Shown: piece after piece, positions 2,577-61,308 of the stretch
How the letters are laid out: each line of letters starts with the position of its first letter
How positions within the stretch are numbered: the first letter of the stretch is position 1
DNA from: Synergistaceae bacterium
Lineage (GTDB): Bacteria; Synergistota; Synergistia; Synergistales; Aminobacteriaceae
Assembly (NCBI GenBank): GCA_031277095.1
Contig: JAISLU010000023.1
Span: 5-64,004 of the forward strand
Reading direction: 5' to 3'
Length of the DNA: 64,000 nt
Position numbers and translations under genes: made by a program
Notes under the pieces: model-generated
Seen by the model: the letters and a program-made list of their open reading frames with translations, nothing else
Databases searched by the model: none
Told to the model about the DNA's origin: nothing

Positions 2577-2636
2577 TATTGAAGATGAGTGTGTATTGAA
2601 GATGAGTGTGTTGAGTGCGTATTGAAGACAAGTATA
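2577..2636. repeat. Tandem array, 17-nt unit TATTGAAGATGAGTGTG x2 plus degenerate copies, in the birA/prfB divergent spacer
   Basis: Read directly: 2577-2593 and 2594-2610 are identical, followed by partial copies up to 2636. Confidence 0.9.
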
Positions 2637-2652
2637 TGATGAATATATTAAG

Positions 2653-2682
2653 CGCGTTTGACTTCTTCGCGTTTGACTTTTA
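2653..2682. repeat. Tandem array 15 nt x2 (CGCGTTTGACTTCTT / CGCGTTTGACTTTTA) just upstream of prfB
   Basis: Read directly. Each unit carries a TTGACT hexamer. Confidence 0.85.
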
Positions 2683-2699
2683 TGGGGGGATGTTGATAG

Positions 2700-3798
2700 A
2701 TGATGCAAGCTAACGTTTCCGTATTGGAAGAACTGCGGTCCCTGAAACAGGAACTGCAGGACAGTCTTTGACCTTCCTACTTTGAGAGCGCGGGTGTCGG
2801 ACCTGGAGGCCGTGGCTACGGAGCCCGATTTTTGGTCCCGTGAGGGCAATCAGGAAATATTGAGGGAAATGTCCGGCATCTCGGGGCGCATCGAAGAATG
2901 GGACCGGGTCTGCCGGGAAACCGACGAGCTGGAGACCCTGGACGCGCTGCTGCGCGAAGAGGAAGACGCGGAACTGCAGAGGGAGTTCGAGACCCGGGCG
3001 CGGGAGCTGCGGCATATGCTGGACCGCCATCAGCTCCTGATCCTGCTGAACGAGGAGTACGACCGGTCCAACGCCATTCTCATGGTCCACGCCGGCTCGG
3101 GAGGGCTGGATTCTCAGGATTGGGCCGAGATGCTTTTGCGTATGTACCTGCGCTGGGCCGAGCGGGACGGTTTCAAAGCGACGGTGCTGGATGCATCGTC
3201 CGACGAGGAGGCCGGTATCAAGAGCGCCACCGTCCTCGTAGAGGGAGAGTACGCCTACGGGTATTTGAAGGCGGAAAAGGGAGTACACCGCCTGGTCCGG
3301 ATTTCCCCCTTCGACGCGGCCCACCGGCGCCACACCAGCTTCGCCTCGGTGGGGGTGTCTCCCGAGCTGGCCGACGACGTGGAGGTCGAGGTGCGCCCCG
3401 AGGATCTGCGGGTCGACACCTTCCGAGCCAGCGGCGCGGGGGGCCAGTACGTCAACCGCACGGACTCGGCGGTGCGCATCACCCACATCCCCACGGGGAT
3501 CGTGGTGAGCTGCCAGAACGAGCGCTCCCAGCACATGAACCGCCAGGTGGCCATGCACGTTCTGAGGAGCAGGCTCTACGAACGGGCGATACAGGAGCGG
3601 AGCGACGAGCTGGCGGCCGTGGTCGGAGACAAGAAAGAAAGCACGTGGGGCAGCCAGATCCGCTCCTACGTGCTGCATCCCTATACCCTCACGAAAGACC
3701 ACCGCACGGGAACGGAAAAAGGAAACGTCCAGGCCGTGCTGGACGGCGATATCGACGAGTTCATCATGGCCTATCTGCGCTGGAAAAAAAATGGTTGA
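2700..3798 (+). CDS. prfB: Peptide chain release factor 2, expressed through a programmed +1 frameshift
   Basis: Frame 1 (2700-2771) reads MMQANVSVLEELRSLKQELQDSL then TGA. The +1 frame continues DLPTLRARVSDLEAV... into ORF 2782..3798, which has the SPF and GGQ motifs (RISPFDAAHRRHTSFA, SGAGGQYVN). Confidence 0.9.
2766..2772 (+). promoter_or_regulatory. RF2 autoregulatory +1 frameshift site CTT TGA C
   Basis: The heptamer CTTTGAC sits at the junction of the two prfB reading frames, with a weak AGGA 5 nt upstream. Confidence 0.85.
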
Positions 3799-5746
3799 AC
3801 CCGGAGGGATATCTTTTCGATGGATACGGGTTTTAATATGGATACGGGTTTTAATGGGAATTTTCCTGCTTTCCTGCGCCGCCCCTTTCCCGGCGGAGCC
3901 CTCCGGCTTGCCGGAGCCCGCGGGCTCGACGGAGCCCGCCGTTTTCGTGCCGGAGCAGCCCACCCTCTCCACGAGAAGACTGCGGGCGGGAATGACGGGG
4001 TATATGCTCACGGTGCTGAAGGGAACGAAGCCGACGCGCCTGCCCGTCGAAATCGTGAGCGTCGTTCCCCAGAAGGGATCGGTCAAAAACTCCGTCATGA
4101 TCCGCATACTGCCCTCGGGGAAAAATACAATCGCTTTGGCTCAAGGGATGAGCGGGTCTCCTGTTTATGTGGAAGGAAGGCTGGTCGGCGCCGTGAGCGT
4201 AGGTTGGAATTTCAGTGATCACAGGACGGCGCTGGTCACTCCCATAGAAGATATGTACGAGGTTTTTTCCCGGCCGGACAAGGTGATCGGCGTCAAAAAC
4301 ATAGATCTAAAGCCTACGGAGAGCGCGGATAAAAGCTCCAGCCACGCCCGATCTCTGGCCTTGCCCCTGATGGTGGGGGGGGTGAGCGACCGCGCCCTGG
4401 CCGGGCTGAAAACGGCCCTGAACCTCCCCGCCGAGACGGTTGCCGTCGAGACGGTTGCCCAGGGAACCTCGGGGGAGCTGCCCCTGAGCGACGTCCGATT
4501 TTTCCCGGGAGAGGCCGCCGCGGTTCTTCTGGCGTGGGGGGACGTGGAAATGGCCGCGGTGGGCACGGTGACCGCAACCTCCAAAGACGGGCGGTTTCTG
4601 GCTTTCGGCCATCCTTTTTTGGAGCGTGGGGCGGTGAACTTTCCCGCGGCCCATGCCCGGGTACACGAAACCGTGTTCAGCCAGGTGTTCCCTTTCAAAA
4701 TCGCGTCTCCGACGGCTCTGGCGGGCACGGTGACCCAAGATCGCTCCGCCGGCGTGGGAGGGCGCATGGGGTACTTCACCCCCACCATCGCGGCGACCTT
4801 CGCTTTCAGGGACATGAATCTTTCCGGCAACGCACGGGTGGTCAAGAACTTCCGCGTCGTCCCGGACGCGTTTTTGGGGGCGAAGCTGCTCACCGGCATT
4901 TACGAAGGGCTCCTGGACGATCAGTGGGGCCGTAAAGGACAGGGCACCGCGACGGTGACCCTGCGGGTGGAGGGGCGCGGCCTGACCAAAGGCTGGACCC
5001 GGACGAACACCTTTTTTTCGGATGCCGACCTGGGGAGCCTGGCCGTAAAGGAGTCCGCTTTGATCATGGAAATGCTGCTGCTCCAGCCCTTCAAGGAAAT
5101 TTTCCCCATAGGTTTCAGGCTCGACGTCTCCGTGACCCAGGAGCCCCAAATTTTGTACATCGAAGATGTGGTGGTCTCGTCGGACGCGGCGCCGGGCGAC
5201 ACCTTGCCCGTGGAGGTGACTTTGCGCCCCTGGCGCCGGAACCCCGTGAAAAAGCGTTTCCAGGTGGTCGTCCCGAAAGACGCCACGGGAAGCTGCGAGC
5301 TGATCGTGCGCGGGGGAGGGACGAACTCCCTTTCTCAACTGGCGGTGGAGGGCGGCTGGAAATCCATCGACAGTTTCGACCGCATGTTGAAGGAAATAGA
5401 CGCGGCAGACGCCAACAACCAGTTGATCATCGAACTGCTTCACGATCAAACGGGCAAAACGGACGAGAAAACGGACAAAGACGGCAAAAAATCCACCGCG
5501 GAACTCCTGCCCGAGGAAAAAGAATTTCTCAGCGAGACGAAAGCAAGGCGCATCGAAGAGGGAACCCTGCGGATCTCCCGGTCGGACTACGTGGTGGAGG
5601 GCTTGATGAAGCGCCTGATCGATCTAAACGCGAAGCCCGAGGCAAAGTCCCAAGAAAAATCCAAGGAAAAATCCAAGGAGAAGCCCAAGGGGAAGTCCTC
5701 AGAAAAGTCCAACGAAAAGCCCAAAGGAAAGGGCGGCGGCAAATGA
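3791..5746 (+). CDS. Secreted S55 (SpoIVB-like) serine peptidase domain protein with a Lys/Ser/Glu-rich tail
   Basis: GMSGSPVYVEGRLVGAVSVGW protease motif, a hydrophobic N-terminus with an LLSC lipobox-like site, and a C-terminal KSKEKSKEKPKGK repeat. An alternative start is at 3854. Confidence 0.6.
   Translation: MVEPGGISFRWIRVLIWIRVLMGIFLLSCAAPFPAEPSGLPEPAGSTEPAVFVPEQPTLSTRRLRAGMTGYMLTVLKGTKPTRLPVEIVSVVPQKGSVKNSVMIRILPSGKNTIALAQGMSGSPVYVEGRLVGAVSVGWNFSDHRTALVTPIEDMYEVFSRPDKVIGVKNIDLKPTESADKSSSHARSLALPLMVGGVSDRALAGLKTALNLPAETVAVETVAQGTSGELPLSDVRFFPGEAAAVLLAWGDVEMAAVGTVTATSKDGRFLAFGHPFLERGAVNFPAAHARVHETVFSQVFPFKIASPTALAGTVTQDRSAGVGGRMGYFTPTIAATFAFRDMNLSGNARVVKNFRVVPDAFLGAKLLTGIYEGLLDDQWGRKGQGTATVTLRVEGRGLTKGWTRTNTFFSDADLGSLAVKESALIMEMLLLQPFKEIFPIGFRLDVSVTQEPQILYIEDVVVSSDAAPGDTLPVEVTLRPWRRNPVKKRFQVVVPKDATGSCELIVRGGGTNSLSQLAVEGGWKSIDSFDRMLKEIDAADANNQLIIELLHDQTGKTDEKTDKDGKKSTAELLPEEKEFLSETKARRIEEGTLRISRSDYVVEGLMKRLIDLNAKPEAKSQEKSKEKSKEKPKGKSSEKSNEKPKGKGGGK
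3821..3856 (+). repeat. Tandem duplication 18 nt x2 (TGGATACGGGTTTTAATA/G) inside the signal-peptide region
   Basis: Read directly. It encodes WIRVLI/WIRVLM. Confidence 0.9.
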
Positions 5747-6465
5747 CGACGCCGGATAGAGACTTGGATGGAGGCTTGGACAGAGACTTGGATAGAGGCT
5801 TGGATAGGGGCTTGGATAGGGGCTTGTTCATCACCGTGGAGGGCATCGACGGCTGCGGCAAAACCACTCAGGCCCGGAGACTCTGCGCCTGGCTGGAGGA
5901 CACATTGGGGAGCGGCAGGGCTCTTCGCACCTTCGAGCCCGGCGGCTGGGGCGGAGGAGCCCTTCTGCGGCGGCTTCTGCTGGACGGAACGGTCTTGACG
6001 TCCCGGACGGAATTGCTTCTTTTCCTGGCGGACCGCAGCGGGCACCTGGACGCCGAAGTGCTTCCGGCCCTGAATAGGGGGCAGTGGGTCGTGTGCGAAC
6101 GCTACACGGACTCGACCTTGGCCTATCAGTCCTGGGGGCGGGGCATCGCCCTGGAGGAAATAGAAGGTCTCTCGAACTGGTGCCGTTTTCCGGCCCCCGA
6201 CGTGACGGTTCTTTTGGACGTGGACGAAAAAACCGCCCGGTCCCGCCTGGGGGCGCGGGGAAAACTGGACCGTATGGAGTCGGGGTTCGAGACGGATTTC
6301 ATGGCACGGGTGGCTCTGGGCTACAGAGAGCTGGCGCGGCGATATCCCGGCAGGATCGTCGTCGTCGACGGGGCGGCGGACGAGGACCGCGTGGCGGCAC
6401 AGGTGACGGAGCGGGTGACGGAGCGGGTCAGGCAGCGGAGGCGCCTGGAGGGAGAGCGGACGTGA
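5743..6465 (+). CDS. tmk: Thymidylate kinase
   Basis: FITVEGIDGCGKTTQ P-loop and a DRSG/TDSTLAYQ core. The ATG overlaps the upstream stop (ATGA). The N-terminus carries a DRDL/DRGL repeat. Confidence 0.9.
   Translation: MTTPDRDLDGGLDRDLDRGLDRGLDRGLFITVEGIDGCGKTTQARRLCAWLEDTLGSGRALRTFEPGGWGGGALLRRLLLDGTVLTSRTELLLFLADRSGHLDAEVLPALNRGQWVVCERYTDSTLAYQSWGRGIALEEIEGLSNWCRFPAPDVTVLLDVDEKTARSRLGARGKLDRMESGFETDFMARVALGYRELARRYPGRIVVVDGAADEDRVAAQVTERVTERVRQRRRLEGERT
5755..5826 (+). repeat. Tandem array 12 nt x6 (GACTTGGATAGA / GGCTTGGATAGG) in the first 28 codons of tmk
   Basis: Read directly. It encodes DRDLDGGLDRDLDRGLDRGLDRGL. Confidence 0.9.
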
Positions 6466-6914
6466 GAATCAAGCGAGGCGCCGAAAGCAAGGCCGAAAGC
6501 AAAGTGGAAGGAAGGGGCGACGGGGGCGCCCGCCAGGGTTCCTCGCCTCAGGCCCTGACTGCCCGGCCGCCTTTTGCCGCCTCCATGGAAAGCGCCTTGG
6601 AGGAGCTGGAAGTCCGGGAGCTTTTGGAGCGCCTGGGCTACGTGACGGCGAAACTCTCCCATTTCCCGGCCGAGCGGCTGCTTCTCGAGTACAAAGTCAT
6701 TTTGAGGGAGCTTCTGGCGCGGGCCATGAAGGGGTTTACCCTGCGGCGGGACCTGAAGTGGCGGCGCACCGACCGCAGCACATACGTTATGATAGAAAAA
6801 GCGGAGTCCGCCCTGAAAGAGCTGGAGGACGTCTTTCGTCAGGAAAGTGGACGAACGCGGACCCTGCAGTTGATGGAGGAAATAAAAGGTTGTCTGATCT
6901 CGCTTCTGTTCTGA
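6462..6914 (+). CDS. DUF327 (YaaR-like) family protein
   Basis: The C-terminal two thirds (MESALEELEVRELLERLG...LMEEIKGCLISLLF) and the position between tmk and holB match the tmk-yaaR-holB-yaaT arrangement. GTG start overlaps the tmk stop (GTGA). An AESK x2 repeat lies at 6480-6503. Confidence 0.5.
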   Translation: MRIKRGAESKAESKVEGRGDGGARQGSSPQALTARPPFAASMESALEELEVRELLERLGYVTAKLSHFPAERLLLEYKVILRELLARAMKGFTLRRDLKWRRTDRSTYVMIEKAESALKELEDVFRQESGRTRTLQLMEEIKGCLISLLF

Positions 6915-7687
6915 ATCGCCCCAATCCGCCTTTTGCGGAGCTTCCCTCGTGGCGGGATGTCCTCGGGACTTTCGCTAAGGGTTCCGTTCCCCATTCCTGG
7001 GCCCTGGCCGCGCCGGTCGAGTGGCATGCCTCTCTCCGGGACGAGATGGCGCGGCTGTATCTCTGCGACCAGGGGATGGGGGGCGACGACTGCGAGGGCT
7101 GCCGGGGCTGGCGCCGAAGCGCCCAGGGCTCTCTCACTCATCCCGATTTGACGGTGGTGGGGGAAATCGACAAGGCGGGGAATGTCGAGGCGTGCCGCGC
7201 CCTGATCAAGGAGCTTTTTCTGAAACCCGTGGCGGCGAAGCGCCGGTTGGGGGTTCTGTTGGCGGCGGACAAACTGTTGGTCCACGCGGCGAACAGCCTC
7301 TTGAAAGTAGCGGAAGAACCTCCCCTGCACGCTTGCCTCCTGTTTTTGCTGGAGGGGGACAATTTGCTGCCTACCCTCCGAAGCCGTTCGCGCTTTACGA
7401 CTTTGACGGCGCCGTTGTCTTCCGCGCCCTGCCCCATGCCTCGGGGAGAAACCGAATGGCTGCAGTGGCTGCAAAATTTCAAAGACGGCGACGATATTCC
7501 CGGGCTTTTGTCCTCGTGGACGGAGGATTTTCTGCAGGCGGGCGACCTGGAGTCTGCCGCTCGGACGGAGAGACTGCGCCTGCTGGTTCTGCAAAAAAAA
7601 CTTTCTCAAACGATGACCTGCGATCTTTTAATTTTGACGCTCAAGGAGGAACTTCCTTTTGAACATATATTTGGCGGTTTTCGGTAA
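6890..7687 (+). CDS. holB: DNA polymerase III delta-prime subunit
   Basis: Cys-rich module CDQGMGGDDCEGCRGW, LLKVAEEPP and TLRSRS (SRC-type) motifs. Start is uncertain (TTG 6890, preceded by GGAGGAAATAAAAGG). Confidence 0.65.
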   Translation: MSDLASVLNRPNPPFAELPSWRDVLGTFAKGSVPHSWALAAPVEWHASLRDEMARLYLCDQGMGGDDCEGCRGWRRSAQGSLTHPDLTVVGEIDKAGNVEACRALIKELFLKPVAAKRRLGVLLAADKLLVHAANSLLKVAEEPPLHACLLFLLEGDNLLPTLRSRSRFTTLTAPLSSAPCPMPRGETEWLQWLQNFKDGDDIPGLLSSWTEDFLQAGDLESAARTERLRLLVLQKKLSQTMTCDLLILTLKEELPFEHIFGGFR

Positions 7688-9365
7688 GCCCCGTTATCTC
7701 GGACTGATGAACATCGGCGAGCCCGCGCCGAGGACGGGATGTTGGATCGTTGTCAAGACCCTCCGGGGCCTGGAAATGGCGCTGCTGGGCGGGACATTGT
7801 CCAAGGAGCAGGAGACGAAGTACAGAAGCACCTGCTTCGACGAACCCAGCGACGAGCACACCCGCGGCCCCGAGCCCATGCTGCAGGAAGTGGAGTTTGT
7901 GGACCCCGCCAGCGAGGCCCAAATCCGTGAACATTATCTGCGGCGCTTGGACGAAGATGGGGTGCTGGTCCGCTCCAGGCAGATTTTACAGAATCATCAG
8001 CTCCAGATGAAGCTGGTGGACGTGGAGTACACCATGGACCGGAAAAAATTATTTTTCTACTTCACCTCCGAACAGCGCATCGATTTTCGGGCTTACGTGC
8101 GGGACCTGGCAAGAGAGTTTCGCATCCGTATAGAGATGCGCCAGATAGGGGTGCGGGACGAAGCCAAGACCGTCCGGGGGATAGCTCCCTGCGGCCGGGC
8201 CTGTTGCTGCAGCTATTGGCTCCATCGTTTCACCCCGATCAACATCCGCATGGTGAAGGAGCAGAATTTGGCACTGAACCCCACAAAAATATCGGGCATC
8301 TGCGGCAGGTTGATGTGCTGCATGGCCTACGAGCATTCCCATTACTCCGAGCTTTGGAAGACCCTCCCCAACCCCGGCGCCAAAATCAAAACCACCCAGG
8401 GAAATTACATCCTCGAGGGCGTGGACCTCCAGACGGAAAGCGTGAAAGTCCGTTTCCCGGAAGGCCGGGAGGTCCCCATTCCCATTGCCGAGTTCGCCGA
8501 CTTCAAAGACACCATTCTGCGGGGCGAGGAATGGAAAGAAACCCCGGCGGAGACTCTCACGCGCCGGACGCTGCTCCCCTTCAGGTCCATAACCTCCAGA
8601 ACCGTCATTTCCCCCAAAACCCTGCGCCCCGCTGTGAGGGAGGTGCGGGCGGCGGAACATACGAAAGACCTGGCCAAAGAGTCCAAAGACGCCAGAAACA
8701 ACAAAAAATTCAAACCCGAGAAAATTTCCATCGAAGAGCATATCGCGGTGCGCATCAGCGAGAGAATCCCAAATGACAAAATCTCGAATGAGAGAACCGC
8801 GAGATCCGTCAATGAAAGAGCCCCTCATGAAAGGGCTCCCCATGAAAGGGTTCCTTATGAAAGATCTTCACATACTGAAAGATCTTTTAATGAAAGAAAT
8901 TCCCGCACTGAAAAACCTTCCCGCACTGAAAAATCTTTCAATGCAAGAACCGCCGATGAACGGGACCCGAATCCGCCGAAAGCCGATGCGGCTCAAAAAA
9001 ACATGCCCGGAAAGAAGCGCCTTCGGCATCACAAAAGCAGCAAGCCAGGCAAGCCACTCAGTGGCAAGCCAATCAGTGGCAAACCACCAAGCGACAAGCC
9101 ACTGCCCAATCCTGGGGCCCCGGGGGAGAGGCTCACGCGTCCAGAGCAGCCTTTGCAACCAAAGCAGGCGCAGCAACCTGCCCAGCCTTCGAGAAACTCA
9201 GCCCCCCAAAAGACCGACGCGGGGCCCCGCCCTCCTCGCGAGCCGGGCGGAGAGACACAAAAAGGAGCCGACGACCGCCGCCGCCCCCGCCCTCAGAACG
9301 TTCAGCGGAGCCCTCAGCGGGGCCGCGACGACCACAGCCAGGCCCCGGGTAAGGAGGATTCGTGA
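7659..9365 (+). CDS. ricT: PSP1-domain protein RicT/YaaT with a ~270-aa low-complexity C-terminal extension
   Basis: Contains KLFFYFTSEQRIDFRAYVRDLAREFRIRIEMRQIGVRDEAK...CGRACCCSYWL...CGRLMCCMAYE. TTG start lies 9 nt after AAGGAGG. Confidence 0.8.
   Translation: MNIYLAVFGKPRYLGLMNIGEPAPRTGCWIVVKTLRGLEMALLGGTLSKEQETKYRSTCFDEPSDEHTRGPEPMLQEVEFVDPASEAQIREHYLRRLDEDGVLVRSRQILQNHQLQMKLVDVEYTMDRKKLFFYFTSEQRIDFRAYVRDLAREFRIRIEMRQIGVRDEAKTVRGIAPCGRACCCSYWLHRFTPINIRMVKEQNLALNPTKISGICGRLMCCMAYEHSHYSELWKTLPNPGAKIKTTQGNYILEGVDLQTESVKVRFPEGREVPIPIAEFADFKDTILRGEEWKETPAETLTRRTLLPFRSITSRTVISPKTLRPAVREVRAAEHTKDLAKESKDARNNKKFKPEKISIEEHIAVRISERIPNDKISNERTARSVNERAPHERAPHERVPYERSSHTERSFNERNSRTEKPSRTEKSFNARTADERDPNPPKADAAQKNMPGKKRLRHHKSSKPGKPLSGKPISGKPPSDKPLPNPGAPGERLTRPEQPLQPKQAQQPAQPSRNSAPQKTDAGPRPPREPGGETQKGADDRRRPRPQNVQRSPQRGRDDHSQAPGKEDS
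8808..8943 (+). repeat. Degenerate tandem array (~15-nt units, core ATGAAAG / CTGAAAA) in the ricT tail
   Basis: CAATGAAAGAGCCCCT CATGAAAGGGCTCCC CATGAAAGGGTTCCTT ATGAAAGATC..., encoding ERAPHERAPHERVPYER and TEKPSRTEKS. Confidence 0.8.
9036..9105 (+). repeat. Tandem array 15 nt x~4.5 (GGCAAGCCACTCAGT) in the ricT tail
   Basis: Encodes GKPLSGKPISGKPPSDKPL. Confidence 0.85.
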
Positions 9366-10364
9366 ATGGCTTTTTTCGCCAGCTTGAAAGAAAATCTCAA
9401 AAAAAACCTCAAAGAGAATCTCAGGGGCGTCAAGGAACGATGGAGCGAGGGCATAGCGTCGCTTTTTACCGGAGAGCCTTTCGACGACGCTTTCTGGAAC
9501 GAATTGGAGGAGCGATTGATCCTGGGCGACGTGGGCGTGGATCTTTCCGAGGCTATCGTGGACGAGATGAAACACGAGGCGAAAAAGAGAAAGGTGTCCA
9601 CAAAGTCCGATCTCAAGAGTATTTTTGTGGCGGACATTGCCCATCGGCTGGCGGCTGTGGAGGGGATGGGACAGCCCTTTTCGGTGGACGACCCTCCTCT
9701 CGTCCTTTTGATGGCGGGGGTGAACGGAAGCGGGAAAACCACCTCCGCCGGGAAGCTGGCCCTGCAATTTTCGCGTCAGGGCCGGCAGGTCGTCCTGGGT
9801 GCCGCAGACACCTTTCGCGCCGCCGCCACGGAGCAGCTGCAGGTATGGGGAGAGCGCGCCGGAGTGAGAGTCGTGGCCCAAAAGCCGGGCAGCGACCCGG
9901 CGGCCGTCGCCTTTGACGCCTGGCAGGCAGTGCGGGCCTCGTCCTCGGACGTGCTGATCGTGGACACGGCGGGACGCCTGCACGCAAAACACAACTTGAT
10001 GGAGGAGCTGCGGAAAATCTACAAGGTGCTGGAGCGGGAGGCCGGCGCGGACCATATACGGACCGTTCTGGTGCTGGACGCCGTGACGGGCCAAAACGGC
10101 GTCGCCCAGGCCGCGACCTTCAATCAAATTTTCCCCTTGTCCGCGGTGATCCTGTCCAAGTACGACAACACCGCGAAGGGCGGCGTCGTGCTGCCCATCG
10201 CCTGCAACCTGAAAATACCCATTCGCTACATTGGCCTGGGAGAGGGGATAGAGGACCTGAGCCCCTTCGACCCCGGGGAGTTCGCCTCGGCCCTGATGGA
10301 ACAGGATGAAACGCAGCAGGATGAAATGCAGCAAAATAAGGCGGACAACGGGGGTGCCCAATGA
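9366..10364 (+). CDS. ftsY: Signal recognition particle receptor
   Basis: [22 protein letters not shown] and KYDNTAKGG motifs. In-frame repeats lie at both ends (9387-9422 12 nt x3 KENL/KKNL; 10302-10331 15 nt x2 [10 protein letters not shown]). Confidence 0.9.
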
Positions 10365-11509
10365 TCTTTTCTCGCGCCCAAGAGCTTAAAGCTCTCACCA
10401 CCCGATCGAGCCTGACCGTTTTGCTGCGCGCGTTTTACCGCATGGGACTGGATTACTGCGTCCTGCCTCCCTCCGACGGGTTCGGAGACATCATCGTCTT
10501 TACGAAAGACCAGTTGGTCTCCTTGATTGAACGCAACAGCGAGGCCTCCATCCTGGACATATCGAGGCGGGTCGCCCAGGGGCTCTTCAAGCCCGTCGCG
10601 ATTTTCAAGTCCGATGCGTCCTCCAGCGATTTCGTTTCCAAAGGAGGCTTTGCGGACCCGGAAAAACTTCAAGTCCTCGTCGTCGACGAAGAGGGGGCGA
10701 GCGTTTCTTCCCTGAAGGAGGCCCTCATCCCCAGAACACCCAATTTTCCCGAATGGTGGGAGGCCCCGATCCCCTTCGCCCTGTTCGAGCGGGGAAAAAC
10801 CTACATCAACCGCACGGCCATGCTGATGTTCGGCCCCGATCTGAAGCGCATCGCGACCGACGACCTCCCCGACAAAAATGAGTTTTTGGTGACCCTGGAG
10901 GGAAAAGGGAGCCCCTGCACCGTCACCTTTCGCCGCTTGGAGGGAACTATTTTCATGCTGGACGACTGCACCAGCGACGCCGCGGCCGCGGCGGACATAG
11001 CCTGGTGGGCGGCGGTGGGCAAGGCCTGGTCCACGGAACTCGACGCGGAAAAACGTGTTCACCGCCGCTGCGGCAAAGAGGAGGCGGAGAGCCTCCGCGC
11101 CAACCACATCGTTCTCACCTGCGAATGGGAGGGTGAACTGCTGGGATATTTTTGCGTAGAAAAGACCGCCAGAAAAATACGCCGCTCCCCCGCGACTCTC
11201 GCAAAAGACCAGACCAAAACCGGAATAAAAGAGAAAGGGAAAGAAAAGGAAAAAACGGGGGAAAAAGAAACCCGCCGCTCCTCTTCCCAATCTTCTCCCA
11301 AATCTTCTTCTCAATCTTCTTCCAAATCTTCTTCCCAGCCCTCTTCCGAGAAAAATTCGGGAGAAGATACGGAGGACCAGGGCAACGAAACCCTCAGAGT
11401 TCTCGGCCCTCAGGCAATGGGACTCCTGGCGCCCGGGCTCTATCCTTCCGCCCCAGAAGAATCAGATCATGAAGAATTGGATCATGAAAAATTTGATCAT
11501 GGGCAATGA
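10361..11509 (+). CDS. Hypothetical protein with a Ser/Lys/Glu-rich tail
   Basis: Long ORF coupled to ftsY by an ATGA overlap. No family recognised. The tail is KEKGKEKEKTGEKE...SSSQSSPKSSSQSSSKSSSQPSS. Confidence 0.5.
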   Translation: MIFSRAQELKALTTRSSLTVLLRAFYRMGLDYCVLPPSDGFGDIIVFTKDQLVSLIERNSEASILDISRRVAQGLFKPVAIFKSDASSSDFVSKGGFADPEKLQVLVVDEEGASVSSLKEALIPRTPNFPEWWEAPIPFALFERGKTYINRTAMLMFGPDLKRIATDDLPDKNEFLVTLEGKGSPCTVTFRRLEGTIFMLDDCTSDAAAAADIAWWAAVGKAWSTELDAEKRVHRRCGKEEAESLRANHIVLTCEWEGELLGYFCVEKTARKIRRSPATLAKDQTKTGIKEKGKEKEKTGEKETRRSSSQSSPKSSSQSSSKSSSQPSSEKNSGEDTEDQGNETLRVLGPQAMGLLAPGLYPSAPEESDHEELDHEKFDHGQ

Positions 11510-11575
11510 GGTCATGGAAGATCCGATCATGAAAAATGAGGTCATGAAAAATCCGATCATGGGAAATCCCATGAC
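11464..11575 (+). repeat. Tandem array ~15 nt x7 (GATCATGAAAAAT-type units) spanning the junction of two genes
   Basis: GATCATGAAGAATTG GATCATGAAAAATTT GATCATGGGCAATGAG GTCATGGAAGATCC GATCATGAAAAATGAG GTCATGAAAAATCC GATCATGGGAAATCC. Confidence 0.9.
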
Positions 11576-12098
11576 CGACCCGCTGGTAAAGCGAATTGCG
11601 GGCATTTTGTACCCGGCTGAAGATTTGGGCGGGCAGTGGTTCGACTGGGCGGTGGAAAAGCTGCGGGCCCTTTGGGGCGAGCCGGAGATCCTCGGCCTTC
11701 CCGTGCCTTTCACGACCACGGACTACTACCGTTGTATCGCTCCGCGCCTTCTCCGCCGTTTCGTCTGTTTCCAGGGGCTCGTTCCGGCCGGCGGCCTGTC
11801 CGAGTGGAAGCGCGCCTCGATAGAGATCGAGAAGGCAAGCCGGACCCCCCGGATCGTCAACATCGACCCTGGATACGTGGACGGGGCACGGCTCGTTCTG
11901 GCCTCCACGAAGGACCACGCCCACCGGATCTATCTCCGGGACGGCATTTACGCCGAGGTGACGATGCGTTTTCGGTTCGGAAAATGGGCGTCCTTCGACT
12001 ATACTTTTCCTGATTTCGCCGGCGGCCTCTACGACGATTTCTTGTCGGAAGCGCGGGACGCCTGGCGGAATTCCGATAAAAGGAGGAAGAACCGATGA
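11469..12098 (+). CDS. DUF4416-like protein
   Basis: The core NIDPGYVDGARLVLASTKDHAHRIYLRDGIYAEVTMRF resembles DUF4416. Eight in-frame ATGs lie at 11469-11571, so the true start is ambiguous (11571 gives MTDPLVKR...). Confidence 0.5.
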   Translation: MKNWIMKNLIMGNEVMEDPIMKNEVMKNPIMGNPMTDPLVKRIAGILYPAEDLGGQWFDWAVEKLRALWGEPEILGLPVPFTTTDYYRCIAPRLLRRFVCFQGLVPAGGLSEWKRASIEIEKASRTPRIVNIDPGYVDGARLVLASTKDHAHRIYLRDGIYAEVTMRFRFGKWASFDYTFPDFAGGLYDDFLSEARDAWRNSDKRRKNR

Positions 12099-13390
12099 TC
12101 GATCGTTACACCACCGCGGCGATGTCCAAGATATGGAGCGAGGAAAATCGCTTTGCCCTCATGCTGCAGGTGGAGCTTGCGGCGTGCCGGGCGTGGAGCG
12201 AGGAAGGGCGGATTCCCCGGGAGGCCCTGGACGATATTTTGAAAAAGGCGGCGTTTTCCGTCACCCGCATCGGGGAAATAGAAAGCACGGTCCACCATGA
12301 CGTCATCGCCTTCGTCACCTCCGTGGCCGAAAGCATCGGAGAAAACGGGCGTTACGTCCACCTGGGGCTTACCAGCAGCGACGTCTTGGACACGGCCTCG
12401 TCCCTGATGCTGCGGGATGCCCTTGCCCTCGTCAAGGAGGCGGTTCTTGAGCTGGACGCCGCCGTGACGGAGAAGGCCCTGAAGTACAAACATCTGCCCT
12501 GCGTGGGGCGAACCCACGGCATACACGCCGAGCCCATGACCCTGGGGCTCAAATTTTTGAACTGGCACGCCGAGCTGCAGCGGGACCTGGAGCGCGTCGA
12601 CCTGGCGGCTTCCCAGATTTCCTGGGGTAAAATTTCCGGCGCGGTGGGAACCTACGCCCTCTGTCCTCCGGAAATCGAGGCGCGGGTGTGCGAACTGCTG
12701 GGCCTGAGCCCCGCGCTCGTCTCGAACCAGATTCTCCAGCGGGACCGGCACGCCCAGGTTCTGAGCGCCCTGGCGCTGTTGGGCTGCGGACTGGAACGCA
12801 TGGCTATGGAGGTGCGCCACCTCCAGCGCACCGAGGTCGGCGAGCTTTACGAACCCTTCGGCAGCGGGCAGAAGGGCTCCAGCGCCATGCCCCACAAGCG
12901 CAATCCGATCAAGAGCGAGCGGGTCTGCGGCATGGCCCGCCTGTTGCGCGGCTACGCCCTGACGGCCATGGAAAACGTGGCCCTCTGGCACGAGCGGGAC
13001 ATCAGCCACTCCTCCACGGAGAGGGTGATCTGGCCGGACGCCTTTCACACGGTCCATTTCATGCTCTCGGATATGAGGGATATCCTGGCCAAGCTCACCG
13101 TGGACGAAAAACGCATCCAGGAGGACCTGGAACTCACCCACGGACTTATCTACAGTCAGCGGGTGATGCTGGCCCTGCTGGACGAGCTGGCGCTTCCCCG
13201 GGAGGCGGTCTATGAGATCGTCCAGGACAACGCGATGCTCACGGCGCAGGGCGGCGGAAAATTTATCGATCTCCTGAAAAAAGACCCGCGCCTCGAGGGA
13301 CTGATAGACGCGGAAAAACTGGCTTCTTTGTTTGAAGCGAATTTTTACACCCGTTACGTGGACAGAATCTTCGAGCGTTTCGGGCTTTAG
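12095..13390 (+). CDS. purB: Adenylosuccinate lyase
   Basis: MIDRYTTAAMSKIWSEENRF..., the GSSAMPHKRNP signature, full length. ATGA overlap with the upstream stop. Confidence 0.92.
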   Translation: MIDRYTTAAMSKIWSEENRFALMLQVELAACRAWSEEGRIPREALDDILKKAAFSVTRIGEIESTVHHDVIAFVTSVAESIGENGRYVHLGLTSSDVLDTASSLMLRDALALVKEAVLELDAAVTEKALKYKHLPCVGRTHGIHAEPMTLGLKFLNWHAELQRDLERVDLAASQISWGKISGAVGTYALCPPEIEARVCELLGLSPALVSNQILQRDRHAQVLSALALLGCGLERMAMEVRHLQRTEVGELYEPFGSGQKGSSAMPHKRNPIKSERVCGMARLLRGYALTAMENVALWHERDISHSSTERVIWPDAFHTVHFMLSDMRDILAKLTVDEKRIQEDLELTHGLIYSQRVMLALLDELALPREAVYEIVQDNAMLTAQGGGKFIDLLKKDPRLEGLIDAEKLASLFEANFYTRYVDRIFERFGL

Positions 13391-13410
13391 CCCACCCGCT
13401 CCAGAACGGG

Positions 13411-13495
13411 AATCATGAGCAGAGAGTCATGGCAGAAAAGCATGAATGGAAAAGCATGAGTAGTCATGAATAGTCATGGATAGAAAATTATGAGC
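13411..13495. repeat. Irregular tandem array of (A/G)(G/T)CATG(A/G) units (7 copies, 10-14 nt apart) between purB and the recombinase gene
   Basis: AATCATGAGC AGAGAGTCATGG CAGAAAAGCATGAATGGAAAAGCATGAGTAGTCATGAATAGTCATGGATAGAAAATTATGAGC. The last ATG (13490) is the CDS start. Confidence 0.85.
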
Positions 13496-14509
13496 GAGAA
13501 ATCCGAAATCATGGACGAGGCTTCAGAGCGTAGAGAAGAGCATGAAGAAGAACGTGGAGAAGAGCGTAGAGAAGAGCATGAAGAACTGCCCCTCTGGAAC
13601 GAGCTGAGTATCGACGAGGCGAGGGTCCTGCTGGATCGTTTCCGCATGTACCTCATAGGGGAGCGGGGGCGCAGCCATCTTACGGCCGAAGGCTACACCT
13701 CCGACCTGCGGCAATGGCTGAAGTTTTGCGAAACCAACGGCCTGGTTGCCTTTCCCCCCACGTTTCCCGCCGTCAGCGCATTCCGAAAGCACATGGACGA
13801 GGAGGGCAAACTGCGCTCCACTCAGCAGCGCTGCATCGCCGCCATGCGCTCCTGGATTCATTTCGTGGAGATGGAGGAGGGGGAGGAACTGGAGATCCCG
13901 CTGCCCGACCTGCCCGACAAAACCAGGCTCCAGCCCCGCATACTGAACGAAGGGGAAATCAAAAGGCTGATGGACGCCTGTCAGGGAACCAAGCCTTTGG
14001 TCGTGCGGGACCGGGCCATCTTCGAGATCGGCTATGGGTGCGGGCTGAGGGCCAGTGAAATTTGCGGGCTGGACATGTTGGACCTGGATTTCGACTCGAA
14101 AATTCTGCGGGCAAAAGGCAAGGGAGACAAGGAGCGGGTGGTCCCCTTCCTGGGCGAGGCCGCGCGGAGCGTGAAAATCTATCTCGAAACGGCCCGCCCC
14201 CAGTTGAAGGGCGACGCCGGCCACAAAAGCAAAAACAAGGTCTTTTTGTCCTGCTCCGGGCGTCCCCTGAACCGCCAGGACATGTGGCGCATTTTGAGAA
14301 AACGCGGACGCCAGGCGGGGATAGCCTCGTCCCGGTTGTATCCTCATATCCTGCGGCACAGCTGCGCGACGCATCTTTTGGCCAGGGGTATGGACATGCG
14401 GACGCTGCAGGAAATGCTGGGGCATTCCTCGATCATTACCACTCAAACCTACGCCCACTTCGACCGGGAAATGAGGCTTGTCTACGACCAGTTCCACCCG
14501 CGAGCATAA
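13490..14509 (+). CDS. Tyrosine site-specific recombinase, XerC/XerD family
   Basis: GLRASEICGL (Arg), HILRHSCATHLL (HxxR), LGHSSIITTQTYAH (His...Tyr). The N-terminus has a 24-nt unit repeated at 13526-13549 and 13562-13585 (ERREEHEE). Confidence 0.85.
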   Translation: MSEKSEIMDEASERREEHEEERGEERREEHEELPLWNELSIDEARVLLDRFRMYLIGERGRSHLTAEGYTSDLRQWLKFCETNGLVAFPPTFPAVSAFRKHMDEEGKLRSTQQRCIAAMRSWIHFVEMEEGEELEIPLPDLPDKTRLQPRILNEGEIKRLMDACQGTKPLVVRDRAIFEIGYGCGLRASEICGLDMLDLDFDSKILRAKGKGDKERVVPFLGEAARSVKIYLETARPQLKGDAGHKSKNKVFLSCSGRPLNRQDMWRILRKRGRQAGIASSRLYPHILRHSCATHLLARGMDMRTLQEMLGHSSIITTQTYAHFDREMRLVYDQFHPRA

Positions 14510-14700: not shown

Positions 14701-15546
14701 ATGTCTGACGATCGTTATTACGAAAATGTCCAGGAGGCCCTGAGGTATCTCCAGTCCGCCGCGGAGGGCTTCCAACCTAAGACCGCCATCGTGCTGGGGT
14801 CGGGGTTGGGGAGCGTCTCCGAAAAAATCCTCGGCGCCCAGGTCATCGATACGAAAGATATCCCTCATTGGCCGCGCTGCACGGCGCCCGGTCACGCGGG
14901 GAAGGTTTTCCTGGGGAAAATCGAGGGCCGCCCCGTGGTGCTGCTCAAGGGGCGTGTGCATTTTTACGAGGGATACCTCATGCGGGACGTCACCTTCTCC
15001 ACGCGGGTGCTGGGAATGTGGGGCGTCGCGCAGTATGTGGGGACAAACGCTTCGGGCGCTGTGGACACCCGTTTGAAACCTCGGGATATCGTGCTGCTCG
15101 AAGATCACATCAACTATATGGGGACCAATCCGCTGATCGGCGGACCCGAACCGCGATGGAACGCGCGCTTTCCCGACATGACTCAGGTGTACAGCCCCCA
15201 CTTGCTGGATTTATGCGAGAGAGCCGCCTTGACGGAGGGGATTCGGACCCGGCGAGGAACCTATATCGCCTTTTCCGGCCCCTCCTACGAGACCCCGGCG
15301 GAGATCATGATGGCTCGCACTTTGGGGGCCTCGGTGGTGGGAATGTCCACCGTCCCGGAGGCCATCGTCTCGAAGGCGATGGGCATAGAGACGGTGGTAC
15401 TCTCCTGCGTGTCCAACATGGCGGCGGGTCTGGGCGGCGAAATTTTGACCTACGAAGAGGTGCTGTCGGTCATGGAGGAAACCTCCGCCCAATTGGGGAC
15501 CCTGATCTGCGCCTTCATGAAACAACTGGAGGACAACGCCCTCTGA
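14701..15546 (+). CDS. punA: Purine nucleoside phosphorylase (trimeric PunA type)
   Basis: IVLGSGLG, GHAGKVFLG, GRVHFYEG, GPSYETPAE and VGMSTVPE motifs. ATG 14701 is preceded by GGGAAGG. Confidence 0.85.
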   Translation: MSDDRYYENVQEALRYLQSAAEGFQPKTAIVLGSGLGSVSEKILGAQVIDTKDIPHWPRCTAPGHAGKVFLGKIEGRPVVLLKGRVHFYEGYLMRDVTFSTRVLGMWGVAQYVGTNASGAVDTRLKPRDIVLLEDHINYMGTNPLIGGPEPRWNARFPDMTQVYSPHLLDLCERAALTEGIRTRRGTYIAFSGPSYETPAEIMMARTLGASVVGMSTVPEAIVSKAMGIETVVLSCVSNMAAGLGGEILTYEEVLSVMEETSAQLGTLICAFMKQLEDNAL

Positions 15547-16469: not shown

Positions 16470-16706
16470 CGCCCTCGGAAACGCCAGGGGGGGCCGCGTG
16501 GCTTTTTAAATTTCACTTTTTTTCCACTTTTTTCCATCTTTTCCATCTCGCGGATTTGGGCTATCCCGTTATTGACGTTTGAAAATAAATGAGGTAGACT
16601 TCTCCCAATTGTATAGAAAAGTTACTGTGCAAAAAGCATGAAGGAAGAGGTTTGTTCAGGGGTTTCGTTATAAATTATTTATTGGATATTGGGGAATAAA
16701 CAACGT

Positions 16707-16792: not shown

Positions 16793-16820
16793 AGACAATA
16801 AAACACAGAATTAGGTAGGA

Positions 16821-18644: not shown

Positions 18645-19811
18645 ATGCTGAAATCGAAGAATTTTGGGTGGTACGAAATTACACGAAACTTGGCCGCCAG
18701 TTTTTTGGCCTTTCTAATTGCTACGATTATCATTTTTGTCGTTGCCAGAGAAAATGCCAATATTGCGCTAAAAAATTTTTTCCTCGGCGCGTTCAGCAGC
18801 AGGCATAACTTTTCTAAAGTCGTAGAAGATTTTATTCCGATGGTATTTTCAGGGCTGGCTATCAATATCATGTTTAAAAGCGGACTTTTTTCTTTGGCGG
18901 CTGACAGTGCATTTTATATGTCGGGGGTTGTGGCAACTGCAATCGCTATCGGTATGCCGCTACCGGCGGGCATCCACCAAATCGTCATTTTGTTGGCTGG
19001 CGCCTTGGTTGGAGGATTGCTCTGTCTGATTCCGGTCGTCGTCCGTAAGTATACCGGAGCCCATGAATTGGTCACTTCCATGATGCTCGGTTACATTACC
19101 TTCAATTTCGGATACTGGATCATTCGAGAGTTTTTTCTCGATAAAAATAACGGAGTGTTTTCCACGACTTTTGCCGCTACCGCCACTTTATGTAAAATGT
19201 TCAAGGGAACTAATATTCATTTCGGTCTATTAATCATGGCGGCTGCCGTGATTGTCATGTGGATCGTCGTCGAAAAATCTCGTTATGGGCGGGAATTATC
19301 TTTTACCGGCTCCAATGAAAATTTTGCAAGATACGCCGGAATCGAAATAACGACGGTCATTATCATTTCTCAATTTGTCGGGGGCTTCTGGGCGGGGCTT
19401 GGTGGGGCGGTCACTATGATTGGCATCTTTAGAACTTTTCAATGGGTGACTCCTGTGGACTATGTTTGGGATGGCATCTTAATCAATCTGCTGGCTGGGA
19501 GAAAACCTCTAATGATTCCATTAGCCGCGTTTTTCATGTCTTCTCTGCGAGTAGGGGCCAATATCATGTCGCGAGTGGGCCATGTGGACTCAGAATTGGT
19601 CGCGATAATTCAGGCAATCATCATCTTGTTGATCGCGTCTGAGCGCTTTTTGTACCGTATGAAACAACGTAAGGAAGAACGTGAAGCCCTGCTAAACAGA
19701 ACATCGAACTCCATTCAAAATGAAGAGGTTCAAATTGAAGAGGTTCAAATTGAAGGAATTAAAGTTGAAGGGATTAAAATTGAAGATGTGCCTGGGAGTT
19801 CTCAATCATGA
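18645..19811 (+). CDS. ABC transporter permease (BMP-type system)
   Basis: Multi-TM protein. AGGAG lies 9 nt upstream of ATG 18645. The C-terminus has an EEVQI/EGIKV repeat. Confidence 0.8.
   Translation: MLKSKNFGWYEITRNLAASFLAFLIATIIIFVVARENANIALKNFFLGAFSSRHNFSKVVEDFIPMVFSGLAINIMFKSGLFSLAADSAFYMSGVVATAIAIGMPLPAGIHQIVILLAGALVGGLLCLIPVVVRKYTGAHELVTSMMLGYITFNFGYWIIREFFLDKNNGVFSTTFAATATLCKMFKGTNIHFGLLIMAAAVIVMWIVVEKSRYGRELSFTGSNENFARYAGIEITTVIIISQFVGGFWAGLGGAVTMIGIFRTFQWVTPVDYVWDGILINLLAGRKPLMIPLAAFFMSSLRVGANIMSRVGHVDSELVAIIQAIIILLIASERFLYRMKQRKEEREALLNRTSNSIQNEEVQIEEVQIEGIKVEGIKIEDVPGSSQS
19719..19790 (+). repeat. Tandem array 15 nt x~5 (ATTGAAGAGGTTCAA-type) in the last 30 codons of the permease gene
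   Basis: AATGAAGAGGTTCAA ATTGAAGAGGTTCAA ATTGAAGGAATTAAA GTTGAAGGGATTAAA ATTGAAGATGTG. Confidence 0.9.
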
Positions 19812-20731: not shown

Positions 20732-20793
20732 ACATATAAAGCAGTAATTGATTTTGAGGAAAGTAATTTATTTTGAAGAAGGAGTAAAGACTT

Positions 20794-22803: not shown

Positions 22804-22967
22804 AACCAAACTAGGGATTGGGGAGGTAGGACAAAATTATAACGCCACGTATATTTTTCAAAAAAAACGCTGTCAGGGTGCTTTCCTTTGTACTTTTTCT
22901 CGTGTTTTCCCTTGAGTTTTCTTTTGATTTTTCCCTTCCGCTGAGGCCGGGCGCGGAGGCGCTGGGC

Positions 22968-24872: not shown

Positions 24873-24979
24873 ACTCGGGCGAGCTAAAGTATGAAGAATC
24901 GCCGGAATATCCCGAGATCCGTGTGCGCAGTTTGCGCAGCAGGTTTCGGGATATTTCACATTGGGCAGCTTTCTTCGGC

Positions 24980-25063
24980 CCTTTCATTCAGCCTTTCATT
25001 TAACCTTTCACTCAGTCTTTCATTCAGTCTTTCACTCAGCCTTCCATTCGGGCCTTCATTGCC
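24980..25063. repeat. Non-coding tandem array 12 nt x7 (CCTTTCATTCAG-type) downstream of the ankyrin gene
   Basis: CCTTTCATTCAG CCTTTCATTTAA CCTTTCACTCAG TCTTTCATTCAG TCTTTCACTCAG CCTTCCATTCGG GCCTTCATTGCC. Confidence 0.9.
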
Positions 25064-25360: not shown

Positions 25361-25524
25361 AGGATATCGTAGTTTTCATTGCCGCCCCATTCGCAAATTT
25401 TCGCATATTTTTCAAATTTTCTTGGCTCCTTGATTGAGCGGCTGCTTGGGTCGCTTGGGTTTACTTTCCCTTTCCCTGTTTCATGGTAAAATGATCTTTT
25501 AAACTATCAAAGGGGTGAAACGGA

Positions 25525-26766: not shown

Positions 26767-26814
26767 AAACCATTTTGTGCAAACTATTTTGTGCAAAGGA
26801 CAAGGAGAACGAAC

Positions 26815-28005: not shown

Positions 28006-28073
28006 CATCGAGAATGACATTGAGAATGACATCAATGACATAAAAATCTGACATAAAAACCTGACATAAAAAC
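28002..28073. repeat. Tandem array beginning at the amidohydrolase stop codon (ATGACAT / CTGACATAAAAA units)
   Basis: CATGACATCGAGA ATGACATTGAGA ATGACATCA ATGACATAAAAATC TGACATAAAAACC TGACATAAAAACC. Confidence 0.9.
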
Positions 28074-28168
28074 CGCAATAAACGAAATGAGCGATTGACG
28101 AAAAACGTTTTTGGAAAAATAATAAACTAGAGATTCCTCACCATTTCAAAAAATTAGGAGGGTGCGAA

Positions 28169-36128: not shown

Positions 36129-36144
36129 TCAAAACAAAAAGTCA

Positions 36145-61233: not shown

Positions 61234-61308
61234 GTTCGCACCCCCAGGAAATGTGGATCAGAAAAGTATATATCAGGAAGCACGGATCGAGAAAGGGGAT
61301 CAGGCAAG

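Follow-up and report, generated by a model that had tools for sequence, protein, structure and literature searches.

Short tandem arrays crowd the gene boundaries of contig JAISLU010000023.1, part of a metagenome-assembled genome (MAG) of an uncultured Synergistaceae bacterium. The stretch that we analyzed, hereafter the window, is 64,000 nucleotides (nt) long and covers nearly all of that 64,023-nt contig, with a coding density of about 91%. Its first 16.5 kb carry, in conserved synteny, the genes for RF-1, an S55 peptidase, Tmk, DUF327, HolB, PSP1/RicT, FtsY, an unnamed protein, DUF4416, PurB, XerD, a PNP-family enzyme and an M23 peptidase, in that order. Here we show that the richness in arrays is a trait of the clade and not of this gene set, that the arrays arose by duplication in situ, and that they have been filtered both for reading frame and for location. 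The feature is real and statistically robust, and it is a striking case of an ordinary process rather than a new system.

Methods

Arrays were called with Tandem Repeats Finder (TRF), overlapping rows were merged, and score thresholds of at least 50 and at least 40 were used; the control sequences were dinucleotide-preserving shuffles within 200-nt blocks. Two published rules were also applied, the SATFIND rule (four exact decamers in 800 nt) and the rule used for Borg repeats (perfect repeats of at least 3 units and at least 50 nt). The gene map came from codon-usage scoring corrected by synteny (DUF327 at 6462-6914; HolB start at 6890), and the disorder of array peptides was judged by composition only. 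For comparison among relatives, we counted arrays of period 10-20 with a score of at least 50 per kb.

Results

The window holds 28 merged TRF arrays at a score of at least 50 and 38 at a score of at least 40, while shuffled sequence yields 0.35 arrays at the higher threshold, with a maximum of 2. An initial annotation, made by reading the sequence, had listed more than 20 independent arrays with mostly 12- or 15-nt units; nearly all of them are recovered at their coordinates by TRF, the one at 2653-2682 by eye, and the two periods account for 21 of the 28. Array density is 0.44 per kb in the window and 0.077 in 1.9 Mb of unrelated bacterial loci, and for periods of 10-20 the figures are 0.44 and 0.024-0.028. 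Arrays comprise two to seven copies and span at most 115 nt, TRF finds no period above 19 in the window, and the match between copies is 94% in the near-perfect two-copy arrays and averages 84% in the degenerate arrays of at least 2.5 copies. The longest run with at least three exact decamer repeats measures 71 nt (11482-11552), and the 37 nt at 28036-28072 form the sole array in which whole units are repeated almost exactly. Under the SATFIND rule the window has zero loci, for which reason we dropped the claim that it tops all surveyed bacteria in array density, and under the Borg rule it has zero arrays.

The arrays are AT-rich, with a GC content of 0.41 compared with 0.55 in their flanks (lower in 32 of 38, p = 2e-6), and A makes up 33.7% of unit bases as against 24.1% window-wide. 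They had been described as AT- and purine-rich islands, of which the first half stands and the second shrinks to a weak bias (mean purine content 0.56, above 0.5 in 23 of 38). The unit sequences had also been called unrelated to one another, and indeed, among all loci in the window, the similarity between any two units does not exceed that of shuffled units, so the arrays are not a dispersed element. A mobile repeat resembling repetitive extragenic palindromic (REP) sequences, miniature inverted-repeat transposable elements (MITEs) or CRISPRs was rejected, as the units form no family. The only unit that recurs between loci is CAAAAAGT x2, at two loci, and an Rfam scan of the window returned tRNAs only.

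Location is far from random. Three-quarters of the arrays (75%) lie within 100 nt of a boundary of a coding sequence (CDS), compared with 30% under random placement, and 0 of 5000 simulations came as high. The assertion that nearly all of them sit at boundaries therefore holds as a tendency but not for the rest, about a quarter of the total, which sit inside genes in variable linkers, for example towards the end of the unnamed protein (its last third) or in the C-terminal half of PSP1/RicT. Intergenic DNA contains 1.36 arrays per kb, the initial 100 nt of a CDS 1.22, the final 100 nt 0.90 and the CDS interior 0.17, and six relatives with independent gene calls give the same ordering in weaker form. 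In most N-terminal arrays the repeats start 11-35 nt into the gene and have their NTG out of frame, and C-terminal arrays finish 16-31 nt ahead of the stop, so that at most terminal arrays both the region of initiation and the ribosome-binding site of the next gene stay single-copy. This spacing looks like avoidance of initiation and ribosome-binding sites rather than targeting.

Reading frame provides the second filter. Periods divisible by 3 account for 22 of 24 coding arrays and for 5 of 11 non-coding ones (Fisher p = 0.006); the non-coding periods are 6, 8, 9, 10, 10, 12, 13, 15, 15, 17 and 19. The array at 62409, one of the two coding exceptions, is probably in a 5′ untranslated region, and the second exception is a weak run of purines. 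A bias to multiples of 3 had been proposed even for non-coding arrays, citing those at 24969-25060 and 61284-61361; both do appear non-coding (only short unsupported open reading frames (ORFs) overlap them, and we kept them as such), but they are just two of the eleven, and the share among all eleven does not differ from 1/3 (p = 0.29).

Almost every unit was said to carry an NTG(A/G) core resembling a start codon. Of the 38 units, 19 contain it on the gene strand and 16 on the opposite strand; controls give 9.8 by unit shuffles and 31% among non-array 15-mers near boundaries (p = 0.011). ATG is not enriched (10 of 38 units, 7.5 expected), while TGA on the gene strand is moderately so (16 of 38, p = 0.010), plausibly because repeats rich in Glu and Asp bring NNT-GAR codon pairs with them. 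Recoding of TGA as the cause of the TGA-rich units was rejected because gene lengths under the standard code match those of orthologs.

The in-frame oligopeptide repeats at protein ends that had been noticed in Tmk, FtsY, XerD and the S55 signal peptide are confirmed and extend to ABC permeases. Array peptides contain 69% disorder-promoting residues by composition, compared with 48% in window proteins, and 39% charged residues compared with 23%. Differences between units fall on codon positions 1, 2 and 3 in 22, 20 and 33 cases (p = 0.14), of which 45 are nonsynonymous and 30 synonymous, and this spread over all positions implies that the peptides are only weakly constrained.

Comparison with relatives places the excess in the clade. 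The nearest relatives by PurB identity are loci L161-L163 (85-88%), followed by L001, L082, L164 and L165 (77-80%); an exact PurB look-up, a metagenome scan and a genome scan revealed no second genome of the species, the sole 100% match (MDR2179165.1) being the source contig itself. Beside the 0.44 per kb of the window, or 0.91 in its syntenic 16.5 kb, the density is 0.135 per kb in relatives of 85-88% PurB identity, 0.27 at 77-80% and 0.076 at 71-72%, where L166 (72%) alone has 4 arrays in 16.7 kb. The same syntenic genes in distant Synergistaceae have 0.011 per kb. A literature search on tandem repeats in Synergistetes returned nothing relevant.

Protein alignments show each terminal array as an insertion found only in the window, in orthologs with flanks that align closely with those of relatives. 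DNA alignment of FtsY places a 24-nt in-frame insertion at its N-terminus, consisting of two extra copies of AAAGAAAATCTC, a unit that is single-copy in four relatives, and the peptide LKENL thereby goes from one copy in relatives to three in the window. The DUF327 unit GCCGAAAGCAAG (12 nt, AESK) likewise occurs twice in the window and once in L161. XerD and DUF4416 have 27-30 residues more than in relatives, and L161-L163 lack the N-terminal array of XerD (13525..13585). The (DRGL)6 stretch of Tmk, which precedes the P-loop and includes an in-frame TTG in each unit (six in all), is missing from orthologs, as is the (EKSK)n tail of the S55 peptidase (5640..5730); the array behind the signal peptide of that peptidase (3894..3941) is not in L161 or L163. 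Against the same two loci, the PSP1/RicT linker has a window-specific repeat block of about 50 residues. Relatives have repeats of their own in these regions: EENR-EENR-EKNR in the C-terminal tail of FtsY and GKQDGRQ repeats at the C-terminus of PSP1 in L161, and SKE/TLKE repeats in the unnamed protein of L162. Since relatives hold different arrays in the same tails, the tails are recurrent hotspots with turnover, and both copy number and presence differ between related species.

A minority of arrays straddle a start or stop codon and copy that codon, which gives rise to the start-codon-like cores at the starts of DUF4416, Tmk, the XerD leader and the GLUG-motif protein. The array at 11456..11569 gives rise to eight in-frame ATGs, seven of them spaced 15 nt apart (11469-11559) and an eighth 12 nt downstream at 11571, where the conserved DUF4416 protein begins; at the same junction of the unnamed gene and DUF4416, L001 has an independent unit, Shine-Dalgarno (SD) sequence plus ATG, in three copies. 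In-frame ATGs also stand at 62656 and 62671 in the gene for the GLUG-motif protein. The PurB-XerD spacer measures 100 nt in the window and 5-22 nt in three relatives, and its seven CATGR units look, from their sequence, like copies of the XerD start region. They create the mini-ORFs MSSHE*, MNSHG* and MDRKL*, which terminate no later than the XerD ATG; the last of them overlaps the XerD start through its stop codon (ATGA). Where arrays copy starts, neither the start codons called nor the protein lengths given in these MAGs can be relied on.

Two low-GC islands, at 16500-22000 and 43600-56400, have a GC content of about 0.42-0.45 in a backbone of about 0.60, and both were probably acquired horizontally. 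Arrays had been thought almost absent from them; the islands are about 3-fold poorer in arrays (4 of 28, p = 0.011), yet not empty. Scarcity in horizontally acquired DNA fits a gradual build-up of arrays in resident DNA.

Discussion

We consider it highly probable that the arrays reflect a high rate, throughout this clade, of tandem duplication of 10-19 nt, with selection then sparing those duplications that keep the reading frame and fall in tolerant, disordered positions. Under this reading a local piece of 10-19 nt is duplicated head to tail on the spot and at times expanded further, most likely through strand slippage or through a displaced strand misprocessed in replication, with ligation of an unprocessed flap. 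Such duplications are retained some 5-16 times more in this Synergistaceae clade than in other bacteria, whether the excess is due to a higher mutational input or to weaker purging, either of which may apply. Within genes the survivors are units of 12, 15 and 18 nt, because these keep the reading frame, and they survive almost only where extra residues are tolerated, in signal peptides, in variable linkers and in the tails at either end of a protein, whereas any period survives in intergenic DNA. The tolerant DNA of a compact genome lies at gene boundaries, and so the arrays hug starts and stops. Their AT-rich make-up, rich in K, E, S and P at the protein level, fits weakly constrained, disordered sequence; the AT-richness itself may come from easier strand misalignment, from AT-biased drift of unconstrained DNA, or from both. 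The null model of the initial annotation, slippage-generated minisatellites that survive where proteins tolerate them, is thus the one that the frame and location filters and the duplication in situ support.

Several points weigh against this reading. The high-density relatives all stem from a pair of related sequencing projects (JGI 33000426xx and NCBI JAIS...), and L166, at 72% identity but from the same project, is array-rich as well, so that phylogeny and source are confounded. The molecular route is deduced rather than observed, and ongoing change in copy number is unproven. Glu, Asp and Lys codons account only loosely for the narrow size range, with nothing above 19 nt, and for the gene-strand enrichment of TGA and NTGR (p of about 0.01 relative to boundary controls). 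Finally, gene starts in the window derive from ORF scoring and are ambiguous where arrays contain several start codons.

The narrow range of 10-19 nt recalls the duplications of flap-nuclease mutants (yeast rad27, the 5′-nuclease of polA in Escherichia coli). A stronger version of the same idea is possible, although we hold it to be doubtful: that the excess is the footprint of a clade-specific mutational process acting at 12-15 nt, with weak flap or single-strand-exonuclease processing at Okazaki-fragment maturation as the candidate, which would steadily add disordered tails to housekeeping proteins across the lineage as a chromosomal bacterial counterpart of Borg repeats, and that some copied starts (DUF4416, Tmk, the XerD leader) would since have been co-opted to tune translation.

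Among other explanations, the one that survives best is that a subset of the intergenic arrays are functional direct-repeat regulator sites or duplicated promoter elements. Six copies of (A)TGACAT stand at 12-13-nt spacing upstream of a binding-protein gene and two more upstream of 32295, GCGTTTGACTT x2 and TTGACA-like cores lie in promoter regions, and an identical 16-mer, CAAAAAGTCAAAAAGT, occurs at two loci where 0 are expected. The sites are nevertheless putative, their period range and composition are the same as those of coding arrays, and a handful of loci at most would be explained, which leaves this reading unlikely.

Some arrays resemble selected translation devices, that is, start-codon ladders or standby sites for ribosomes by which tightly coupled operons would adjust initiation or re-initiation, as the initial annotation had suggested. 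The eight in-frame ATGs ahead of DUF4416, the six in-frame TTGs ahead of the conserved Tmk core, the full SD+ATG unit present three times in L001 at the junction of the window's DUF4416 array, and the mini-ORFs upstream of XerD with their ATGA overlap with its start are all what such devices would look like. However, the explanation applies to about 5 of 38 arrays, with in-frame ladders at 3-5 loci. The counts of ATG and of NTGR on the two strands, given above, show neither start-codon enrichment nor strand specificity; the arrays of FtsY, XerD, the permease and the S55 peptidase either lack an NTG or have it out of frame, and out of frame it is in most N-terminal arrays; the same features recur in C-terminal, internal and post-stop arrays; and the ladders are missing from the same genes in close relatives. 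We regard it as improbable.

A duplication process directed at junctions, another alternative named in the initial annotation and triggered for example by the NTGA overlap of start and stop or by coupled transcription and translation, would also place arrays at boundaries, where 75% of them are found within 100 nt. The arrays at 28002, 26762, 11456 and 62645 begin at or span a start or stop codon, and the junction of the unnamed gene and DUF4416 has independent arrays in the window and in L001. The refutation test that the initial annotation set for itself goes against this proposal: CDS ends are no richer than intergenic DNA, and non-coding arrays lack a multiple-of-3 bias. Most terminal arrays lie 11-35 nt inside the gene with the junction itself single-copy, about a quarter of all arrays are in internal variable linkers, and the NTG(A/G) motif is not strand-specific; such a process is most improbable.

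That the arrays are contingency loci, whose fast changes in copy number switch or tune expression (the third alternative of the initial annotation), is more improbable still. They do occupy 5′ coding regions and promoter-proximal spacers in the manner of classical phase-variable genes, and their copy number or presence differs among related species, but with 22 of 24 coding units a multiple of 3 a change in copy number cannot switch the frame. The copies are degenerate, with a mean match of 84% at 2.5 copies or more and no locus with four exact decamers, and the hosts are housekeeping genes (tmk, ftsY, xerD, purB neighbors) instead of surface or restriction genes. Assembly or sequencing artefacts, for which one might point to a window that is a MAG contig and to array-rich relatives that stem from the same projects, are extremely unlikely, because substitutions distinguish the copies, the periods (12-15 nt) are below assembly k-mers, arrays of at most 115 nt fit single reads, and frames are preserved; moreover, the arrays coincide with alignable insertions relative to orthologs and are fewer in the low-GC islands of the same contig.

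The arrays match the behavior of minisatellites, or variable-number tandem repeats, and closely parallel the tandem repeats of Borgs. Slipped-strand mispairing is said to have been put forward as the source of minisatellites by Levinson and Gutman in 1987. Like the window, bacterial minisatellites have head-to-tail local copies with a locus-specific unit, genic periods that are multiples of 3 and encode amino-acid repeats, and a density that depends on lineage. By TRF, the window is about 6-16 times denser than control loci and its arrays sit on housekeeping proteins. Lineage-specific bursts are known from a survey of prokaryote satellites, in Methanosarcina and Burkholderia, although the window arrays are short and degenerate and none has the four exact decamers of that survey; because its strict criterion detects no window array, the densities are not directly comparable (PMC6749651).

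The initial annotation knew of no described system that explains the pattern, yet the frame rule, A-richness, unique units and disordered segments have all been published for Borg repeats (Schoelmerich et al. 2023, PMC9879509). There, all genic units are divisible by 3, compared with 14-38% of intergenic ones, and many independent, A-enriched arrays with unique units occupy conserved hotspots; genic arrays form disordered segments, at times as N-terminal extensions, and can begin at the end of an ORF (PMC9879509). Borg repeats are perfect, recent and often long, with at least 3 units, at least 50 nt and no mismatch (PMC9879509). The window shares with them the frame rule, the enrichment in A and, from composition only, the disordered segments. 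Unlike them, its arrays are degenerate and short, lie on the backbone of a bacterial chromosome, and encode peptides with little sign of selection.

Ehrlichia ruminantium, as Collins et al. reportedly described in 2005, has tandem repeats of actively variable copy number, intergenic DNA inflated by them, and variation among strains. It resembles the window as a host-associated bacterium with many lineage-specific repeats, their units unrelated, that cluster within intergenic regions and close to them, but the window keeps a coding density of about 91% and its units are shorter. The contingency loci of Neisseria, Haemophilus and Campylobacter likewise have repeats at gene 5′ ends and promoters, though as perfect 1-7-nt units that shift frame or promoter spacing in surface and restriction genes, and window arrays match none of this. 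In Plasmodium falciparum, a eukaryote with an extremely AT-rich genome, conserved proteins contain low-complexity, mostly homopolymeric Asn/Lys inserts. These are, like the arrays of the window, lineage-specific, composition-biased, largely neutral, located in housekeeping proteins and attributed to slippage, whereas the window has a backbone of about 60% GC and units of 4-6 residues.

The case is noteworthy chiefly for the density of arrays on housekeeping genes in a bacterial clade. It means that a high density of short tandem duplications is not confined to Borgs and a handful of archaea and intracellular pathogens but can occur on a bacterial chromosome, and that these duplications lengthen conserved proteins such as FtsY, Tmk, XerD and RicT by new disordered tails. 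The clade offers a natural system for following the birth of disordered segments and alternative starts and for separating mutational input from selective filtering, and it is suited to seeking a repair or replication defect behind the 12-15-nt scale.

Array inventory and other features

Table 1. Tandem arrays of the window (TRF calls, except 2653..2682, which was read by eye and lies below TRF score 30); (+) and (-) give gene strands.
Position	Strand	Array	Context
2577..2636	unstranded	17-nt unit TATTGAAGATGAGTGTG, two perfect copies and a degenerate third	divergent intergenic region between 1665-2537(-) and RF-1 gene 2782-3798(+)
2653..2682	unstranded	15 nt x2 (GCGTTTGACTT...), includes -35-like TTGACT	same divergent region
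3820..3855	+	18 nt x2.0, perfect; WIRVLI duplicated	signal-peptide region of S55-family peptidase (3791-5746)
3894..3941	+	18 nt x2.7, EPSGLP/EPAGST	directly after S55 peptidase signal peptide
5640..5730	+	12 nt x7.5, (EKSK)n	tail of S55 peptidase, 16 nt short of stop
5754..5826	+	12 nt x6.1, (DRGL)6	N-terminus of Tmk (5743-6465)
6402..6438	+	12 nt x2.2-3.1, VTER-VTER-VRQR	27 nt before Tmk stop
6480..6502	+	12 nt x1.9, AESK-AESK	N-terminus of DUF327 gene (6462-6914)
8812..9103	+	three arrays: 15 nt x3.5 ERAPH; 18 nt x2.1 SRTEKP; 15 nt x3.7 GKPLS	variable C-terminal linker of PSP1/RicT (7659-9365)
9387..9423	+	12 nt x3.1	FtsY N-terminus
10302..10333	+	15 nt x2.1	31 nt before FtsY stop
11227..11337	+	purine-rich 10-nt array and 12 nt x4.4 (SSQS)n	variable C-terminal region of unnamed protein 10361-11509
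11456..11569	+	15 nt x7.1	overlap of unnamed gene 10361-11509 (stop TGA 11507) and DUF4416 gene
13411..13483	+	seven CATGR units, spacings 14, 13, 14, 10, 10, 15 nt	PurB-XerD spacer
13525..13585	+	12/24-nt array (ERREEHEE...)	N-terminal extension of XerD (13490-14509)
15347..15377	+	15 nt x2.1	interior of PNP_UDP_1 gene 14692-15546
16514..16548	unstranded	T-rich 9-10-nt array	intergenic, between M23 peptidase gene and tRNA-Leu
19714..19786	+	15 nt x4.9 (QIEEV)n	25 nt before stop of ABC permease 18639-19811, low-GC island
20743..20780	unstranded	19 nt x2.0	fills spacer of permease 19808-20731 and binding-protein gene 20794-21921
22904..22937	+	12 nt x2.8	hydrophobic N-terminus of ankyrin-repeat protein 22878-24872
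24969..25060	unstranded	12 nt x6.8 (CTTTCATTCAGC)	97 nt past ankyrin gene stop
25390..25421	unstranded	10 nt x3.3	intergenic, 104 nt upstream of 25525-26766
26762..26797	unstranded	14 nt x2.6	over stop of 25525-26766 and start of M20 peptidase gene 26791-28005
28002..28082	unstranded	12 nt x2.7, then 13 nt x3; six (A)TGACAT copies in total	starts at M20 peptidase TGA stop, upstream of periplasmic binding-protein gene 28169-29170
30811..30856	+	15 nt x3.1 (KWKEW)3; unit ATGs out of frame	17 nt past start of ABC permease 30794-31840
32214..32248	unstranded	6-7-nt TTTGAA array	intergenic, 47 nt upstream of 32295-33155
36135..36156	unstranded	8 nt CAAAAAGT x2.8	7 nt past stop of 35475-36128
42262..42290	+	15 nt x1.9 (GNGAG-GNGG)	within 42046-42753
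42639..42731	+	15 nt x ~6 (ENIAK)n	22 nt before stop of 42046-42753, which overlaps ABC-2 permease gene 42743-43597
58061..58096	-	15 nt x2.4 (ENFGI)	interior of 812-aa gene 57781-60219
61284..61361	unstranded	15 nt x5.3 (4% indels)	142-nt spacer of AraC-type gene 61376-62440(-) and lipoate-protein ligase gene 60229-61233(-)
62409..62522	unstranded	three small arrays: 8 nt ATAACAAA x3.4; 8 nt ACTTTTTG x2.2; 15 nt x2.1	divergent region between 61376-62440(-) and 62656-63888(+)
62645..62676	+	15 nt x2.1, perfect	duplicated start region of GLUG-motif protein gene

A few further observations concern the genes around the arrays. In the mechanical ORF listing the DUF327 gene (6462-6914), which starts at a GTGA overlap with the Tmk stop, is hidden and HolB (6890-7687) is 44 codons too long; synteny with L161 corrects both. 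The low-GC island at 16500-22000 adjoins tRNA-Leu (16707-16792) and encodes a BMP-family ABC transporter. The gene at 22878-24872 (+) encodes a 664-residue protein with a hydrophobic N-terminus and about 12 ankyrin repeats (Pfam Ank_2, E = 6.6e-133). Ankyrin-repeat proteins of this sort are typical of bacteria that live with eukaryotic hosts, and this one hints at a host- or protist-associated lifestyle.

Among the relatives, L165 has a gene for a 658-residue SLFN-like helicase (ResIII / SLFN-g3 helicase) at 7700-9676, between DUF4416 and PurB, which interrupts the conserved order. In L164 no gene is called at the expected PSP1/RicT position (5721-7208), where a tandem array lies at 6840-6875, and the gap may be a frameshift or a failure of gene calling due to the repeats.

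TGACAT, part of the -35-like TTGACA, has two further copies in the window at about 32258-32272, upstream of gene 32295. The 16-mer CAAAAAGTCAAAAAGT is identical at two unrelated intergenic sites, at 36135-36150 (+), after a stop codon and ahead of a GC hairpin and two tRNA genes, and at 62469-62484 (-), upstream of the gene for the AraC-type regulator; as a candidate, it may be a shared binding or promoter element.

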